DNA of 63,948 bases, the filler included, from Porpidia crustulata (taxonomy: Eukaryota), in the NCBI GenBank assembly GCA_964255105.1. It is 3 parts of 3 records of this genome, joined end to end, with 100 filler letters (N's around TTAATTAATTAA, not from the genome) between each part and the next. Parts side by side here need not be neighbours in the genome. Positions count along the whole stretch, not along the records: positions 22,442 to 44,757 come from CAXUWE010000088.1; 2 more parts are not named here. One strand, written 5' to 3'. The translations under genes were made by a program, and so were the position numbers. Positions 22,895 to 34,273 of this stretch are shown in pieces. Below the pieces are notes generated by a model, which saw nothing but the letters and a program-made list of their open reading frames with translations, made no database searches and had not been told where the DNA came from. Every line of letters begins with the position of its first letter. Position 1 is the stretch's first letter.

Positions 22895-24634
22895 TCACCT
22901 CCCACTGTCCGGGAACAACCGATCGTTAACGGCTGTCTTCTCTGTGGCACCAACCGGCGTTGAAGGCTGCTCGTGTTGGTAATCTCGCCTCGGCCCGTCC
23001 ACCGGCGCCAGATCATCCGCCATCGCGTCTTCGTAGCTCGGCGGTGCCGCGTCCGGGATGTCTGCAGGCGGAGGGGCGAAACGTCCACTGGTGGCCCCTT
23101 GAGTAGGAGGTGGCTGAGAATTGCTGGACTGTGGAAACGATGGTCGTGGTGTAGGGGTGGAAATAGGCCGGTTGATCGGAGGTTTATCTGCCATTGCGGC
23201 CAGGAGAGCTTCTGGTGGGGCGATACCCGAGAAAACTTCGACGGGCATGCGCAGCGTTTGGACTGTGAGTTCGGGCTGTCCTAAATTAGATACGTAGGCT
23301 AAAGTAGGCATTGGATGACTTACATTAACATTACCAGCAGTACCGTAGGTGAGGCCAACGTTGATATCTACAAAGTAATTGCGAGATATGTTACAGGTGG
23401 CGAAAGACGGAGCGACGCTGCTAGGCAGTGGAAGACGGTTCCATAGCCCTGCATCAATTTCCATTTCCTTCCCAATCTCGGCGTCTTTGGAGTTGCTCAA
23501 AGGTAGATGCATGTTCGCAGAGCTCATGATTACCCAGCTTGCCGGATCAGATCTGGTCAGCTCATGTGCTCGGCAAGTAGTGTTGGCTATCAGTGCGACC
23601 TGTAGTAATTCTAAGAACATAGTTGCCGGTGATTCATTAAGTTTCGTAACTAGTACTCTTAAAGGGATCGGCTCGTTGCAGCTTACAACCGGGGGGTCGG
23701 GCAATCGGCCGTCGATGCTGACTTTTGGAGGAATCGAGGACTGTTGCGATGTTTGTGACATTGTGGAGTCTCTGCGGAAAGGACCCGACTTGCCCGGTCC
23801 ATCAACGCCAGGAGCGAACTGATGCTGTCGTCTAGCATACGTTTCTCGTCTGTTAGGAGCCGACCGGGGTGGTTCGATAGGCATGAATTTGAAATGTGCA
23901 CGCTCGAGTTTTGGTCAGCTCAGAATGATGTAGAATGAGCCTCCTGAACAAGGAAGAATGCAATAGCCTCGCCAGTCCACCTACCTCCCTAAAGTTTTCC
24001 TTGTAGAAAGCAGGCCGTTGTACTGTGACCTTCACATAGTACCCTATCTGCATCTGACCAGCTATTCCGTTGAGAGACGGAGGTAACGTGCTTTTGACAT
24101 GTCGGTTGGTATCTTGTGCAAGCTCCATCCGAAGGCCAGCGAGGTTGAGATTGGTAAACATCGAGTTCTTGGAACAGTCATTGTTGAATGGGATCTGTAG
24201 TCATTCTTTGAGGAGCTGGGTATAAAGCTTTAGGGCTCTCGAAAGTACCTTGAACCGAAAAGGATACTCGTATCGACCAGCTTGTAAGGTGTAGCTCGGA
24301 TTCTTTGCGGCCACACTTTGTAATTCTGGGGATGGAAAAACGGTCTGTAGTTTGTAGAGCAGCTATACATTGGTCAGCCAGCAATTCGGTGTCAATTTTG
24401 TGTAGTAAAGTACTCACTCACCTTGTGAACCTCCAGCTGGGCATGCTCTCTTCCTGTGGGTCTGCCATACTGATCATTGTAGGTCACCAGGCGGGTTTTG
24501 CTCTCGCCTTCGAGCTTGACCACGATGGCCGAGATTGTTTCGTTGGAGGGAATCTGGAGAACGACTCGTCCGCTGATGAAGTCCAAGTTTGTGAAGCAGG
24601 CATGGGGTTTGTCAAGGAGTATGGCCACCGACAT
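22895..24634 (-). CDS. Alpha-arrestin (arrestin N/C domain, PPxY) protein
   Basis: FTNLDFISGRVVL...IVVKLEGESKT...EVHK|LLYKLQTVFP, STLPPS...IGYYVKVTVQRP, APSFATC and C-terminal PPSYED. Several introns. Confidence 0.85.
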
Positions 24635-25191
24635 GACTTCAAGATGGCTCGGCTTGCGAATAGAAGGGGTGCATGAGAGTTTTGATGATTGATGTTTAAG
24701 GATTTGGAGTATCTGTAGGATCTTTCAATGGCTCACTGTGCAGCGTCATTATCGATATGATTGGCCTGGATGACATTCATCAGTCGCAGCCTTGGGCGTA
24801 AGAGGGTAAAGTGCCGGTTAAGTTTTGTCCGAGTGAAGGCGGAGCAGAGGAAACCGCGTATGCTGCGGCACATCCGGGACATTGATGCTCTACTCTAGAT
24901 ATTCATCTACTTTTGATCAGATAAACATAAAATAATCTATGACCACCTTTACCCAGCGGATTTAGAGTAGACAATCAGCACCGAAAATTGGATCCATATG
25001 ATTCTCCACGTTGCATACACACTTGTCTTGTCGCACTACTAGAGGTCACTTTCGAAAAGTCAACACTCAATTTTTATTATCTCGAGTGTAGAAGATCTTG
25101 GAGCACCCCACTCGCAATCCAGCACATAAAGCGTCGGAGTAGCAAGAAGATCCGCATCAGATACCATTTTCCCACGCCCCTAAAGTCCCTT

Positions 25192-28100
25192 TCACACGCT
25201 ACTCCTCGTCCTTGAGCGCAAAGAGTCTCCTTTCCCCAGTGATAGCTGCTTGGAATCAGACCTTGTTTTCCTAACCCAGCCGGGTCCGCTAGGCATTTCG
25301 TGACTCTCATCCTCCTCATCAATCCCAGGGGAGTAGACCGGGTCGCTTGAGATTGTCAAATCTACGATTTGGGATCCTAAAGGTATCTGTGAGAAGCGTA
25401 GTGCAAATTCACCATCGTCCTCATCTTTGAATGTTCGAAGTTCAGGAGTAGACTTGCTTTGTTTCCGAATATTGACCTTTGCGTCGGACTTTGATCTTCG
25501 CTGTCGCTTTTGATCCTCGTCTGCTGGCAATTCGATCTTGGAAGACGACTTTGCTGTGAGCGGAAGGTTGTCATCTTCGGGCATTAAGCTTTCAAATGAA
25601 GACCTCGTTGAAGCAAGCACGTTCTCGAGAGTCGGGAACTCATCGTCAGAACCTGCGCCATCGAAAGATAAAGTTGGTTCTGGTGAGGTCTCGCGTTGGG
25701 AAGTCCCACCAAAGCGGCCAGAGCTTCGCGAAGCTGGCTTTAGAGAGAGCTCGGGAGAAGACGCCTTTTCGGACAAAGGTTGATACATATCTTCTGCTGG
25801 CCCTACCCCTGATGGGGCGTTGTCCCACGTGACGTCTTGATCATCACTATGCCTATCAAGACTAGCATTCTCGTCGATCTTATCACTCATGAGGAGCTCT
25901 GACCAAGGACTTGCAGCAGCCACGGTCTCAGCCACAGTTTGAGGCAGTATACTCTCGTCTGTTTCTATCCCAGTTATGTCTGCCTGAGCTTCAACGTTCG
26001 AAAGTCCACGTCGATTGGGGGGTGGGCTAGAACTGAAACCGTTGAACCTTGGAGAAGAGATTTTGGTCGCATTGTCCTTATTATCAGAAGCTCCACTACT
26101 AAACTTCTCTGTTCCTGAAAGTTGCGTCCCTGCTTGAATTCCATGCTCGACAACGCCGGAACCAATGCTTGAGCGCCAACCAGCGTCTTCAATCAATTCT
26201 CGAATTTCCTTGCGAACTTCTCCGTTGACCTCTTTGGCTTCGGCGTTATGTTGTGGTCCACCGTACTTGATAGGATTAGATTCCTCAAGACTTGGGTACA
26301 ATCCTTCCTTTCCTTGTGCCACCACTATGTTCGCGCGATATTGTGGACCGGCATCCCAGTCCTGTAATTGCCGCGACTGACCTTCATCCTGCTCATGCTC
26401 CATAGATTGAACGAGCTTTGGAAGAATTAGATCTGCAAATGGCAGCTCAACAATGGTGTCCTCCTCATCGCCTTCGGCCTCTTCGTAGCCTGGCATTTCG
26501 AACTTACCGTAGACCCTTTCTCCGGTCTCGTCATTGTAGAGCTCTTCCTTCACAGGCTGGTCGCGCTTAGCTAGAGTCATACGTAGTGCACCGTCATCCG
26601 TTATTTGGTCAATGAGCGCCGTTTTGTAGCCTGACACTCTGGGCTGCCAGTTTGTCTCTGCGGACATGTCCAGTTGCTTGAATGCAATGATTGTGCCGGG
26701 AATACAACATCCCTGCTCCAAGTCGGAGCATAATGACATGTCCTCTGGTAGATATGGGAGATCTTTGAAATCCTCGGCTTCGATCGGAACAGTGGCAGAA
26801 ATGTCCTCTGACTCTCGCATGAGCTGATCGTTGACTGCTTCCTCGTCGATCTCATTATTCCGAACATCTTGCAATGGCTCATCTGGCTCATCGTCTAAAT
26901 AAGCCGGTGCCTCATACTGCGAGGCATCGTATTGAGCATCTTGATATTCGTAGTCTTCATGGTATTGCTTTGATTTCCGTTTACGCTTCTTGCTGTTGGT
27001 CTTTCCTCGCCCTCTTCCTCTATGTCCCAGCTGTTGCTGCGGATCCCACCTTTGGACGAAAGGGAAAGGTGGTGTGCTGAGTACGACGCCTTCATTACAG
27101 CATTCTACAGCCTCCAGAATGACATTTTCCTTCCAACTTTCATCTTCTCCAATGCTATCTGGTACAACTTTATTGGGGAAATGGATATTCTTACTAGCTT
27201 GAGTCTCCTTAGTGGGACGAACATCTCTCATAAGCTTCTCTCGCGTGCTGATCTCGTCATCTTTCGTCTTAGGTGTCCGAAGTCCTAAGGAGCCGAAGAC
27301 CAAGCGTCGTGAGCTAGCTAGGTCAAGCTTTGCTCGACGCTTTGGTGACCTTGGGGAATCAGACAATTGGGCCGGAACAGCAGCGTCTCTATTAGCGAGG
27401 ACGGCTATATCGATGGAACGTGTCGGTGTAGCTTGTTTCTCGAGTGGCATATCACTCGTACTCGGTTTTTGAGAATCTTCGATTTCAGTCTGAGCGTATG
27501 TCCCTGGAAAATCATTTGCAAATTTTTCAAATGCACGATATTCTATGTTTTCCTCAATAGGAGCAGGTGGCTCAGCCTCTCTTTTATCATCCCTACCAAC
27601 ATAAACGCCACCGGCATCAATAGACGCTAGTAGAGCCATTCGTTTGGCTTCGAACTTAGCTGTCGTGTCTATGATGTTCAGCGCTGGCTCTTGGACAACA
27701 TTCCCTAGTTTCACTGCTGTTGGTGCTGTAAGATTCCCACCCATCGCACGAAAATCTGCTAGCGTTGCGTTCGGAGGAAGTACGCCTTTCTCTACAAGAA
27801 AGGCTCTGCTCTTATTGTCTCTCCGCCGCTGGTTGCGCTTCTGAGTCGCGCTCTTTCCCTTAAAGGGCGGCACCCGTATTTGAACTTCGCCCTTGAGGCT
27901 TGCGATGTCTGTACTATCTCGAGCAATACTGTTTGGTAGTTTTTCCAGTCCTGATTCAGAGCTATCACTATCGCTGGAGCTGCTATTACAGGTGGTGCCA
28001 GAAGACGACGCGATAGACCTCCCTTTCAATGAGGACTGTAAATTCTCATCATCTGAATCGGAGTCACTAGATGAAGACGACCCAGACGAAGAAGTATCTT

Positions 28101-29458
28101 CAATACTAGATTCACTGCTGGTGGACATGGCTGAACTGGTATCGTCTTCAATACCCAGGCTCTGTATATGATCTACTATTAGCAAGTAGAAATGGATCAC
28201 ATACGTATGTTTAGATATAGAATCCTCGCGAAGATTTATTAATAACGTACCTCGTCTGAGTCGCTCTTCCCATCTCGTGGTTTGGCATTCTCCTTATCCG
28301 ATTCATCCATATCAACATTTAAAGTATTCTTGTTTTCAGCGCCTTCGTCATCAAATACTTGAATATCTCCCTCTAGCCGGACGGTGGGTGGGGTTATCAT
28401 ACGGGTGTCGTCGAGTCGGCCAGCGTTCATGCTATCAATCGAAGCCCGCCCGTTCGCGCATCTAGGATTTACAATTGGACTATTGAAATCATCCTTTATA
28501 TTCTGAGTCGTATCCCAGACCCGGTTCATCCGCTTTTGTTCCCGGGAACCGTCGCTAAGAGCCTCACGATTGTGCTCATCCTGCGCTAACAGGTCCAGCA
28601 ATGGATTGGCGTATTCCTCTGGATATGGTCGACCGTTTTCGTCAGTTAGCTCAAGTACGGCAGGACCTTCTAAGCCCAGTCCGGTTTTACGGCGTCCCTG
28701 GGATCTTGTACTCCTTCCTGACAGCTCCTTTGATCCATCCAGATACAGTGCCCTCTCGTCATCATCCATGTTCATGTCGTCATCAGCATGTAAATCTTCA
28801 TGTAAACCCGCCAATTCTTCCGCTAATCCCTCCTCCTCGATAGCTGAAAAATCTTCGTTATCTTTGCTTCCGCTATCCTTATCACTATCGTTGATGTGGT
28901 TGGAATCGGCCCGTATCACAACTTGGCGGTCGTTGGCTCCCAATTCAATGTCTTCACTTTCCTCCTCGTAAGAAATTTTCCTTCTCTTCCTGGGAGGAAT
29001 CCGGATAGCAGGCCTATCCGCTCGTCTCAAAAACGGCCGCCCAAAAGCTACCCCATCAATAAGATGCTTCCCGTCCACAGAGATCTGGTGTCTCCCGGAA
29101 ACTTTGCGAAACCGCAGATCGAGTGTCTGCAGAGGTCGTATACTTACCCACAATCAGCTTCATGGCCAGAAGAAACCCAACTGCCTAGGAGCCGAACTCA
29201 CCACACCTCATCATCCTCTCGCAATACCTGCTCTATTTCCGCGAAATGCAAACACTCAAAGCCCCTTACTTCTACCGCATAATCCTCTAGGCCCCAGTCC
29301 TCACATTCGAGGGGAATGACTTCGTTGACTTGCTCGAGAAATTGAGAGATGGTACAACTAGCACCGGCAGCAGCGTAGGGAGGGCGGAGAACCCCTGCTG
29401 TCCATAGGATTTGAGCGGGGGGGAGGGAATGCCGTTGAACAGTCAATTGGAGTCTCAT
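25192..29458 (-). CDS. Large nuclear protein with coilin-like architecture (candidate coilin/Mug174 homologue)
   Basis: Three exons (ORFs 29198-29533, 28239-29153, 25192-28200). N-terminus MRLQLTVQRHSLP...VLREDDEV; basic NLS; Ser/acidic tracts; RGRGRG; GTIIAFKQLDMS..NWQPRVSGYKTA. The gene itself is well supported; the product assignment is inference. Confidence 0.75.
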
Positions 29459-29832: not shown

Positions 29833-31094
29833 CTACCCTAGCTTCGCCCCAGCAGGAACTCCGACCCTCCTCTTCCCCATTGCTCTGCCCATCGCATCTC
29901 TGACTTCTGGATCCGCTCTAATCGTATTATTTACGAGCCAGTCCTTCACCCTACCTCTCAGCTCCTTGACACCCGCTTCATCGTCAGCGAAAGGTGCAAT
30001 GTCAAATGCGAGTAGCCTGCTAGCTTCTATGTCGAGCGCCTTGGAAGTCTGCTCAAGTCGGTTCAACTGTTGCGTATCAAAAGTCGAAGAAGCGACTGTG
30101 ATGGCTTGTGGGGGGGCGAAGACAGGGCCGAGCTGGGAGAGAGCGATGAAGAGCGTGAGGGTTGCCTTGTGAGCAAGTGTGAGCATTTGAAAGGGAAGGA
30201 GCGGCGGATGAGAGGTTAAGGATAGTAGAGGGTTGATGAGCCTAGTAAGGAGTGGTGGAACGAAAGAACGAGTCAAGGTGTAGTATTCGAGAACGAAGAG
30301 GGCAGCGAAGATAAAATAGCGCCACTGCGGTAGTTTCTTGTTAGAATCTGAATCCATGTAGCGATCCAAGAGGTACATACGAATCGTCCCCATTGCAGAT
30401 AGCCTGTCACGCCCAAGATTATCATGACGATAATAGATCCACCATAAAGGGGAATAACGCCCTGAAGCCCAGCTAGCAGATAGTCTCGAGGCGTGGCGCA
30501 GTGCTGCCATTTGAGCATGTCCGGGCCAAAACGTTCATAGGCCCAGCGCTTGACCGGGTCGATGAGCGTATCGTGAGCAACTCTCAGCCTAACAAAATGC
30601 GCTTCCGCAGTAGCCGTATCATCTGCAGATTTATCGGGATGATGTATTGCAGCTCTGAGAAAATATCAATGATGTTTTTTAGCACACCGCATTTTCAGAC
30701 GATACTCACAGCCGGCGGAATCTTGATTTGATCGTCTTTTCTTCTGCGTCAATGGGTAATCCTAGTTCCTGATAGAAATCGCCAGCTTGGCGCAGCCAGT
30801 GGTCTGCCTCAAAGAAAGTGTATAGTAAGTACACAACTATCACCGCCGTATGTATGCGCCGCCTATGTGTGATATATCTCGGACTTCCTGGCTGGGGCTT
30901 CGGGTTGCCGGCGCGAACGGTAATGCCATAGTATATGGATTGAATCCAACCAGTCGCAAGCTATGATGAAGTTGTCTGTCAGTATCTCACTTTTTTGTGA
31001 GAGTGAAATATGAAAGGGCGCCATACTAAGGGTCTCTCACATTTGGCAGAAAAGTCCAGCCGATATAAGAAAAAATGTTGTTGGCTGCAGACAT
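29833..31094 (-). CDS. Membrane-associated DnaJ-domain co-chaperone
   Basis: Starts MSAANNIFSYIGWTFLPN|LATGWIQSIYY. J domain DFYQELGL...IKSRFRRL|AAIHHPDK...KRWAYERFGP. Several TM segments. Confidence 0.85.
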
Positions 31095-31378
31095 AGTTAG
31101 GTCAACCTTTCCAAGATCTGTTTCTTCGTGGGCCACATGACGCAGATTCCCAAGACATGATAGAGAAATGTTGAGAAGTGTCCCGAAGGGTATCGGAATG
31201 TCCTCGCGAAACCACTACGCGCTACCAGGCACCCGGCTCGCACGGGGCTAGATAGATGTCGGCACAATAGCTTAACGAACGCCGAGCCCTAAATCCGGCT
31301 ATCCATCATGAAATATATTTTTATTTCAAGCCGTTTTCAAAAGTCAGTCACTGAAACCTTCGCCTCAATTCTATTGCT

Positions 31379-32443
31379 ATGTCCCAGGATCTGGAAGTTG
31401 ATAGCCCAAGCAGGCTGCCTAGGTCAATATCGCACAGTAAGACGAGGGACAGAACTGTCGACAAGGGCGAGAAAAAACGCAAACGAAAACATCAAGATGA
31501 TCCTCAGGACCCCTCACCCACCCAAAAACACCGGCGGTCCAAGCCGTCTCCAGACACACCAGCGGCAGTTAAGACGCCGACAATACCATCGATACCCCGA
31601 GACTCGGCAGCTGGTACTGCTTTTCATTCACAGACCTCTTCACTCTACCTTCCACTCTCACCTATCTCTCAGTCTCACCCTCTCCAAGGCTTGTGCGCCG
31701 AATATCTGTCACCTCTCATCTTAACCTATTACCCTCCATTTCAAGGGGTTATACTCTCCTACTCCAATGTCCGGCTATCCTCCACGCCAATTACCACAAA
31801 TGAACGAGAAGAAGTACTAGCACGCTCGATCGACGAGTACGCCGCTGCATTCATCTGGGTCACTGCGGACTTCCTACTATTCAAGCCTGAAAGAGGAAAT
31901 ATATTGGAGGGATGGATAAATCTCCAGAATCAGGGGAATATAGGACTAGTCTGCCTGAACTTTTTCAACATTAGTATTGAGAGAAAAAGGCTGCCGAAGG
32001 AGTGGAGGTGGGTGAGCGGTAAACTGGGTAGGTCAAGGACGTCCGCCAAGGGGAAGCTAAACGACGGCGAATGGAACGATAGAGCTAAAGAGCGAGAGAC
32101 CCGAACAAATGGATCAAGTGACGTAGAAGGACGTTATGTTAACGCTTCGGGGAACCCGGTGGAGGAGCTTATCCGGTTTCGTGTCAAGGACATCGAGACC
32201 TCGAGAAGCGCAGATCGGGAGAACGGGTTCTTGAGCATAGCGGGAACTATGCTGAGCCAGGAAGACGAGCAGAAATTAATGAGGCAGGAAGCTATGATGT
32301 CCCGGAGTATAGAGGCCAGGCGATCTGGACAACCTCGGGAACCTGAGCATGCCAGCTTAGTAGCTTTTGTGAACGGGGCTGACGAAAAGGATGAGGACGG
32401 TCAGATAGCACGCAAGTCGAAGTCGAAGCACAAGCGTGCTTGA
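31379..32443 (+). CDS. RPA43: RNA polymerase I subunit RPA43
   Basis: SLYLPLSPI...LSPLILTYYPPFQGVILSYSNV...FIWVTADFLLFKP...LEGWINLQ...IGLVCLNFFNISIE..RLP.EW. Confidence 0.9.
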   Translation: MSQDLEVDSPSRLPRSISHSKTRDRTVDKGEKKRKRKHQDDPQDPSPTQKHRRSKPSPDTPAAVKTPTIPSIPRDSAAGTAFHSQTSSLYLPLSPISQSHPLQGLCAEYLSPLILTYYPPFQGVILSYSNVRLSSTPITTNEREEVLARSIDEYAAAFIWVTADFLLFKPERGNILEGWINLQNQGNIGLVCLNFFNISIERKRLPKEWRWVSGKLGRSRTSAKGKLNDGEWNDRAKERETRTNGSSDVEGRYVNASGNPVEELIRFRVKDIETSRSADRENGFLSIAGTMLSQEDEQKLMRQEAMMSRSIEARRSGQPREPEHASLVAFVNGADEKDEDGQIARKSKSKHKRA

Positions 32444-32872: not shown

Positions 32873-34273
32873 TCAGTAATCCCCATTTGTAATTCTGTGA
32901 TCAGCCGCCGATTGCTCAACCTCAAGGCTGGGCTTCAAAGCCTTTTGCGGCGAAGGATTCAGTACCTGATCTGCCGGAATCAGTTTTATCGCTGGGTTAA
33001 TTTTCAGACCAAAACCTGGTTCGTCCAGTGCAGCTATATCGAGGTAGCCTTTTGTGGGGATTGGCTCATTGATGAACAAGTTTCCGAATACTGGAAGGAC
33101 GGATTTCCCATCAGGGGAGTTCGCCAGATATTCCTGGAAAGGGGAATTGGACTGTGAGACCACGAAGTGGTAGCTATAGGGACCACTGGCATGGGGAATA
33201 ACAGGTATGTCGTATGCTGAGGCCATAGCGGAGATTCTGAGGAGCTCGGTCATGCCGCCAACCCACATCACATCGGGCTGGAGTACATCAATACACCGAC
33301 CTTCTATAAGTTTGCGAAAACCGTATCGTGAATATTCATGCTCGCCAGTCGTAAACTTTACACTCGGATGCGCACGTTTGATTTGCTCGAATCCATCGGA
33401 GTCGTCTGGAGAAAGGCATTCTTCCCACCAGTCGATCTCGAGGTCCTCGCAAGCCTTAACCAGCTGAATGGCATATGATACGGTCAAGCTCATGTAGCAG
33501 TCGACGCGTAAAGGAAAATCGGGCCCCACACTTTCACGATGTTTTCTTAAGAAAGCAATATTCTTCTTCAGACCGGCCGGCCCCTCGTCCGGACCGTGGG
33601 GAAGAGGCACCTTTGCTCCGATAAAGCCCATTCCTTTCGCAGCGGCCGGTTCCGGCCCAGTACAGTAGAAATTCAGTCGCTCTCGGGTTGTTCCGCCAAG
33701 GAGTCGATAGACTGGCTCGTTCCAAAGTTTGCCTTTGAGATCCCACAAAGCCAGATCGATCACAGATATCACAGCAACAGGAAGCCCCTTACGTCCATAA
33801 AACATGGATGCACGGTACATAAGCTCAAAGAGGCTGTTCGTATTCCGAGGATCTTGGCGTCAGTCTTAGTAGGTTCATGTGAGAATAGGTAGAGCGTGCG
33901 ATTAATCAGATACATACCTGCACCTATCAAGAATCTTTCGAAATGTTGCTTTACAAGCCAGCAAGCCGGAGACCCTCCAAAACCAGTCGCAAAACCCTTC
34001 GTTCCATCGGAAGCTTCGATTTCAACACAGAAGGAGCCCAGGACATTGATACCCCAGCTTGTCCGTGATGCTCGATATTGCTCCCAACCCGACATCGGGG
34101 TTGCAATTGAACTGTCTATGAGCCAATGACCCCCAGCAACCTACTGTTGATCAGCATGGATCGACGGCTTTGGAAGTTGAAGTACTAACATTGTGATAAT
34201 CACCGCCAGAACCTACACCTTCGATAAGGAACGTCCCGACACTCTTTATCTGCAACGACTGATTTGAAACCAT
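32873..34273 (-). CDS. lraC: L-rhamnonate dehydratase (enolase superfamily, RhmD/LRA3 type)
   Basis: GVGSGGDYHN..GGHWLID..IATPMS...SWGINVLG, ISVIDLALWDL, VDCYMS, WWEECLSPDD, TGEHEYSRYGF, QPDVMWVGG. This matches the RhmD/YfaW signature. Two introns. Confidence 0.9.

Follow-up and report, generated by a model that had tools for sequence, protein, structure and literature searches.

The gene described here lies on the minus strand at positions 25192 to 29458 of a 63,948-nucleotide window, the whole stretch of DNA that was analysed, from Porpidia crustulata (assembly GCA_964255105.1), within the part of the window that comes from record CAXUWE010000088.1. Our data indicate that the gene is probably a coilin-family member of the Pezizomycotina, corresponding to the coilin of animals and plants and probably also to Mug174 of Schizosaccharomyces pombe. 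This reading is well supported because the protein combines a Tudor-like domain found by the coilin Tudor profile, an N-terminus with a ubiquitin-like fold and a two-domain layout that is conserved in its relatives. An initial annotation had proposed the gene as a coilin orthologue; the placement in the coilin family is upheld by this profile, fold and layout, whereas the N-terminus gave no match to the Coilin_N family.

The four features on which that proposal was built, an N-terminal domain, tracts resembling a nuclear localisation signal (NLS) together with acidic tracts, an arginine-glycine (RG) box and a block beginning YLP, are all present on the minus strand. They are encoded in three coding pieces, which were delimited from stop-to-stop frames and by reading of the sequence. 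The spliced product is 1372 amino acids (aa) long with a single terminal stop, close to the length of about 1,380 aa given earlier, which is corrected here. The gene model and its two folded domains are as follows.

29202..29458, minus strand: exon 1, with the ATG at 29458 and the last codon cut after two bases; the protein begins MRLQLTVQRH
29143..29201, minus strand: intron 1, 59 nucleotides (nt), with donor GTGAGT, acceptor AAG and a CTGAT branch-like site
28251..29142, minus strand: exon 2, the start of which matches positions 87-131 of the DUF7357 profile (E 1.1e-15)
28162..28250, minus strand: intron 2, 89 nt, GTACGT...CAG, with a CTAAT branch site
25192..28161, minus strand: exon 3 including the stop codon (25192-25194); its translation has one terminal stop
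28995..29458 including intron 1, minus strand: N-terminal ubiquitin-like domain with its extension (DUF7357, aa 1-135), from Pfam and an AlphaFold2 model
26410..26763, minus strand: coilin-type Tudor-like domain, Pfam Tudor_Coilin (PF23086), E 0.0027, 18.4 bits

Intron 1 was placed at 29201..29143 because the junction, which splits a Cys codon and reads DDEV-C-IRPL, then matches the Cys-Ile-Arg-Pro-Leu of full-length orthologues. An alternative intron 1 with a weak donor after DDE and an acceptor at 29127, giving 1365 aa, was rejected. IRPLQTLDLRF is encoded just upstream of that acceptor, and the alternative loses the conserved C-IRPLQ stretch and leaves positions 78-86 of the DUF7357 profile without a match. 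For intron 2, read-through of the exon 2 frame meets a stop; at the second junction the orthologue alignment has no odd gap, and the spliced length agrees. The NLS-like RKRRK noticed earlier starts at 28991, and the richness in Ser, Glu and Asp was seen as well (146, 131 and 129 of 1365 residues respectively, counted on the alternative 1365-aa model).

The N-terminal domain was matched by Pfam DUF7357 (PF24054) in two parts, both of which exceed the curated cut-off of 27 bits: exon 1 over profile positions 1-77 (E 1.2e-30, 106.6 bits) and the start of exon 2 (58.3 bits). Since both pieces match, the domain is about 135 aa long and spans intron 1; it had been described as about 90 aa, and its presence stands but its size does not. 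Because the domain of the source protein is split by an intron, the orthologue P0069 was folded in its place (residues 1-136, with an alignment of 27 sequences, the rows of which are 46-76% identical to P0069). The AlphaFold2 model has a predicted local distance difference test (pLDDT) score of 82.1 and the order strand-strand-helix-strand-strand-strand, followed by a helix. With Foldseek the top rows were all ubiquitin, ISG15, SUMO and other ubiquitin-like proteins (E about 1e-3, probability 1.00). VIA-align gave Z 9.9 with a root-mean-square deviation of 1.8 over 69 residues, and 43 chains at Z>=8. The predicted model thus identifies the N-terminus as a ubiquitin-like domain. The N-terminus of coilin has been reported as ubiquitin-like.

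Other approaches to the N-terminus gave hints of varying value. In a language-model atlas from which DUF7357 clusters were excluded, the nearest clusters were an unannotated plant cluster (0.82), Coilin_N of chordates (0.80) and Coilin of plants (0.77). In a first query Coilin_N (0.77) was barely above DWNN (0.76), another ubiquitin-like family. These neighbours may point to coilin, as leads only. The N-terminal profile searched against sequences of solved structures gave four chance-level matches (E 0.54-1.9) and no coilin chain. A two-copy complex prediction of the domain, run without alignment or controls, scored 0.00 and is uninformative either way. DUF7539 was also matched by 2 of the 27 DUF7357 domains (best E 0.00093); this family may be an N-terminal relative present in other fungi and might lead on to coilin-like proteins at a greater distance.

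The Tudor-like domain carries the landmarks YLPEDM (starting at 26754), PGTIIAFKQ (26700) and LILPKLV (26430). When the piece 26362-26799 was scanned alone, Tudor_Coilin was the sole Pfam family at E<=10; the match disappears when the whole of exon 3 is scanned. Six of seven homologues scanned match Tudor_Coilin at E<=1, two of them above the 27-bit cut-off (P0014 with 32 bits and P0018 with 28.8 bits); in a separate scan the orthologue P0138 exceeded it as well, with 35.7 bits. It was matched by 16 of 18 aligned family blocks chosen at <62% identity, with a best E of 1.8e-8, while other families were matched by one member each. A search with the Tudor block retrieved 178 proteins at E<=0.01, many with precomputed PF23086; the named ones are hypothetical proteins of lichen fungi. 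The comparison of the YLP block with the coilin Tudor profile, proposed at the outset, thus came out in favour of coilin, with Tudor_Coilin as the only family found and orthologues passing the cut-off. The coilin Tudor claimed earlier is therefore matched as a family, but it is not C-terminal in the source protein, where 407 aa follow it.

A profile built from 13 N-terminal domains retrieved 600 cluster representatives at E<=0.001, of which 488 reach E<=1e-10 and 255 reach E<=1e-30. The 150 best-scoring of these were listed, all with E<1e-39 and close family, so any distant tail of the family lies unseen beyond them; 146 were used for layout counts. In a local profile search the Tudor block co-occurs with the N-terminal domain, in the same order, in 135 of the 146. 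Of the 11 representatives in which it was not found, 10 have fewer than 470 aa and resemble truncated models. An N-terminal domain followed by a disordered linker and a Tudor is the layout throughout the family and across ascomycete classes; the relatives with names belong to Dothideomycetes, Lecanoromycetes, Leotiomycetes, Eurotiomycetes (including Aspergillus fumigatus), Sordariomycetes and Geoglossomycetes. The distance from the Tudor to the end of the protein in the 135 is <=15 aa in 36, 16-100 aa in 19 and >100 aa in 80. Given this two-domain arrangement and the varied tail length, the coilin layout is the common theme and a long tail a frequent addition. Some tails carry further domains: a UBA-like domain in P0037 (E 2.7e-8), precomputed PF13446 in P0102, P0272 and P0273, and BRCT (PF00533) in P0233. 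These may be lineage-specific additions or merged gene models.

Conservation outside the folded domains was read from an alignment to 34 full-length homologues, in which the first 141 aa are conserved, PPRKRRK included. The motifs of the linker and of the tail are given below with their conservation values.

28977..28997, minus strand: basic NLS-like PPRKRRK, kept in the family consensus
27820..27846, minus strand: basic motif TQKRNQRRR, conservation 0.74; RN.RR in 86 of 136 representatives
27259..27336, minus strand: block around RRLVFGSLGLRTPKT (RRLVFGSLG), conservation 0.68; also in the consensus of 48 representatives
27031..27114, minus strand: block ending PPFPFVQRWDPQ, conservation 0.76; P.FPF in 126 of 136 representatives
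26974..27027, minus strand: short RG box (GHRGRGRGK, starting at 27027) and then a basic patch (KKRKRK, 26991)
26026..26052, minus strand: tail motif PRFNGFSSS, conservation 0.72
25342..25374, minus strand: SUMO-interaction-like motif SQIVDLTISSD in the C-terminal tail, conservation 0.74

The last of these lies in the 407-aa tail, and we take it to resemble a SUMO-interaction motif of the PIAS type. Among 200 tails of more than 100 aa, 143 contain its core [VIL][VIL]DL[TS], against a rough chance expectation of about 0.01 matches per tail. Within the otherwise variable acidic linker, DESDKENA (about 28270-28300, minus strand, exon 2) is conserved among lichen-fungus homologues.

A number of observations weigh against the placement in the coilin family. 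At the N-terminus, Coilin_N (PF15862) matched neither the source protein nor any of 27 isolated N-terminal domains at E<=10, and none of 48 whole representatives at E<=1, results that have to be read with the HMMER filters in mind, which discard most matches above E of about 0.1. The N-terminal comparison with the Coilin_N profile suggested in the initial annotation thus failed throughout, and the link between DUF7357 and Coilin_N is a putative one. At the Tudor, the 18.4 bits of the source protein lie under the curated cut-off of 27, and just 10 of 48 short-form representatives match Tudor_Coilin at E<=1. The AlphaFold2 model of this domain consists of beta strands forming a small beta-barrel, with a pLDDT of 69.5, which is moderate. 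With that model Foldseek found no solved structure at E<=0.001, and the best VIA score in a wide structural search was Z 6.9, a level that can reflect a common arrangement. The domain is moreover internal in the source protein. The RG box, present in the source as had been described together with KKRKRK, is retained, in RGG-type form, only by the 11 nearest relatives (P0002-P0012). It was not found in any of five more distant lichen-fungus homologues (P0013, P0018, P0044, P0069, P0102), nor was an RG repeat seen in the linker of any of 135 diverse representatives; the basic patch is retained more widely. Being restricted to the nearest relatives, the box therefore appears not to be a character of the family. 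The comparison with the coilin family was also made at the level of Pfam profiles, predicted folds and layout, and Aspergillus nidulans is described as being without canonical Cajal bodies in PMC11964246.

The structural search with the Tudor model adds little by itself. Rows at Z 5.3-6.4 include many Tudor, chromo-barrel, LSm and SH3-like barrels, among them the SMN Tudor domain at Z 5.3, and for this predicted model such a level would indicate only a common small-barrel arrangement. A single Tudor block gave a chance-level match to sequences of solved structures (E 0.86), and with the Tudor profile there was no match at E<=10; no coilin chain came up in these searches either. With structural matches as weak as these, it is the sequence profile that carries the case for a Tudor of the coilin type.

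These points have to be set against other explanations of the gene. It could encode a nuclear fungal protein that has in common with coilin nothing beyond a generic domain of the ubiquitin-like type and a barrel of the Tudor-like type, for example a scaffold of the SUMO/ubiquitin pathway or of the nucleolus, which would be no orthologue of coilin or Mug174 and no organiser of Cajal bodies. Such a protein would leave Coilin_N unmatched and the Tudor block weak in structural matching; ubiquitin-like folds are very common, and the SUMO-interaction-like motif in the tail and the UBA domain in the P0037 tail (E 2.7e-8) would suit it. This is nevertheless unlikely, since Tudor_Coilin is the sole recurring Pfam match and is above the cut-off in several orthologues, both domains occur together and in coilin order in 135 of 146 representatives, and the nearest named language-model clusters of the N-terminus are coilin N-termini rather than other ubiquitin-like families. 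It is more improbable still that the source gene is the orthologue of Eas1 (SPAC18G6.13) and not of Mug174. According to PMC13473130, Eas1 is homologous to the N-terminus of Mug174 and resembles it in predicted structure, and DUF7357 could be assigned here to neither of the two. The resemblance of Eas1, as given there, is to the N-terminus of Mug174 only, whereas the present family has a coilin-type Tudor in 135 of 146 representatives, in keeping with the two distal domains of Mug174 and coilin. We infer orthology to Mug174 rather than to Eas1. That the gene is a chance open reading frame, or a wrongly joined model without a genuine product, is scarcely credible. The model was drawn from sequence, yet the N-terminal profile retrieves 600 cluster representatives at E<=0.001, blocks are conserved along the full length, both introns have canonical splice signals, and many fungi have gene models of similar length that were made independently. 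In a search of sequencing runs the stretch turned up in one unlabelled run and small shares of it in two air metagenomes, with no RNA run among the matches listed.

A protein of the coilin family, as we read the gene, shares with animal and plant coilin a Tudor-like domain of the same Pfam family, a ubiquitin-like N-terminal fold and a long disordered linker with basic NLS-like patches, all in the same order. It differs in that its N-terminus belongs to DUF7357 and not to Coilin_N, in being more than twice as long, in the 407-aa tail with its SUMO-interaction-like motif after the Tudor, and in an RG box that is short and confined to close relatives. Conserved central motifs such as PPFPF.QRWDPQ may be a further difference. 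Mug174, the protein of fission yeast, was predicted in 2022 to be a structural homologue of human coilin (PMC9666668), and was found in 2024 to form Cajal-body-like condensates that depend on Tgs1, which it binds (PMC11347179); according to both papers its N-terminal part is required for localisation and for binding to Tgs1. The source protein resembles it, as it is described there, in its fungal origin and in its two folded domains, placed distally around a disordered middle, and Mug174 would be the expected functional model for the source gene. Eas1, according to a 2026 paper (PMC13473130), shares the N-terminal domain of Mug174; this domain may be related to DUF7357, but the source protein, unlike Eas1 as described there, has a Tudor as well. 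PMC11347179 mentions neither Aspergillus nor Neurospora nor filamentous fungi.

By analogy with coilin and Mug174 the source protein would be nuclear and could have a Cajal-body function. Its N-terminal domain could mediate self-association and bring in partners, for instance the cap hypermethylase Tgs1, and the disordered, acidic and Ser-rich linker, with its basic NLS-like patches, may favour condensation. The Tudor-like domain would hold Sm and small nuclear ribonucleoprotein (snRNP) components, and these activities combined could nucleate Cajal-body-like foci for the maturation of snRNPs. The 407-aa tail, added in the lineage, may tie this assembly to SUMO. It is a more tentative thought, and a doubtful one, that coilin has been remodelled in the Pezizomycotina, with the Coilin N-terminus turned into DUF7357, new conserved linker motifs (RRLVFGSLG and PPFPF.QRWDPQ) and a long tail that follows the Tudor in many lineages and bears a SUMO-interaction motif like that of PIAS. 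If this were true, a remodelled coilin would give rise to Cajal-body-like condensates assembled or regulated by SUMO in filamentous and lichen-forming fungi which are said to lack canonical ones.

Coilin was, to our knowledge, long thought to be absent from fungi, and Mug174 changed this view for fission yeast between 2022 and 2024. With the present family the link reaches the largest group of filamentous fungi, and there is now a concrete gene with which to look for Cajal-body-like condensates in them. The family implies that the N-terminal domain of fungal coilin is Pfam DUF7357, and the conserved motifs could be sites for the binding of partners. The value is mostly for annotation and for the design of experiments.

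It had been stated that such proteins are generally left unannotated, which holds in part. NCBI names the relatives hypothetical and UniRef mostly calls them DUF7357 domain-containing proteins; however, Pfam matches are precomputed for many of them, and two are named "Coilin" in UniRef, P0267 of Cryomyces minteri and P0279 of Trichoglossum hirsutum, both with PF24054 and PF23086. These names are automatic, and hence automatic annotation already makes the coilin link. The naming is inconsistent, in that UniRef labels as Coilin only one of the two Cryomyces minteri copies (P0267 and P0268, which share 88% and 85% identity with the protein of C. antarcticus). A Talaromyces marneffei protein (UniProt A0A093VAG7), a putative member of the family, is cited as coilin in a 2026 omics study (PMC13689312), which likewise goes against the earlier statement. 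Thus, the core identification is not new, being already implied by domain and name databases. New here are the corrected gene model, the interpretation of DUF7357 as the counterpart of the coilin N-terminus, the clade-specific RG box and the conserved motifs of linker and tail. In the literature covered, which left subscription journals outside, no experimental study of any Pezizomycotina coilin and no mention of DUF7357 was found. The searches also returned nothing linking coilin, Cajal and Pezizomycotina, no description of the 407-aa tail, the SUMO-interaction-like motif or the central motifs, and, for coilin with Neurospora, nothing on a fungal coilin as judged by title.

The surroundings of the gene within the window contain the following frames and genes.

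24395-24724, minus strand: Arrestin_N frame, just downstream of the coilin-like stop, E 1.1e-5
29836-30534, minus strand: 233-aa frame adjoining the DnaJ frame, no Pfam match
30276-30665, minus strand: DnaJ-domain frame, directly upstream of the coilin-like gene, E 5.8e-7
31355-32440, plus strand: RNA polymerase I RPA43 gene, RPA43_OB 1.3e-24 and SHS2_Rpb7-N 3.8e-6
32876-33859, minus strand: gene of the mandelate racemase / muconate lactonizing enzyme family, MR_MLE_C 6e-42

None of these neighbours suggests a functional link to the coilin-like gene. The DnaJ frame and the 233-aa frame are probably one spliced J-protein gene, and the Arrestin_N frame probably represents one exon of a gene for an arrestin-related trafficking adaptor. 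The adjacency of RPA43 and the coilin-like gene may be conserved in several lichen fungi; in Squamulea squamosa, P0013 is a fused gene model with RPA43, then DUF7357 and then the Tudor.

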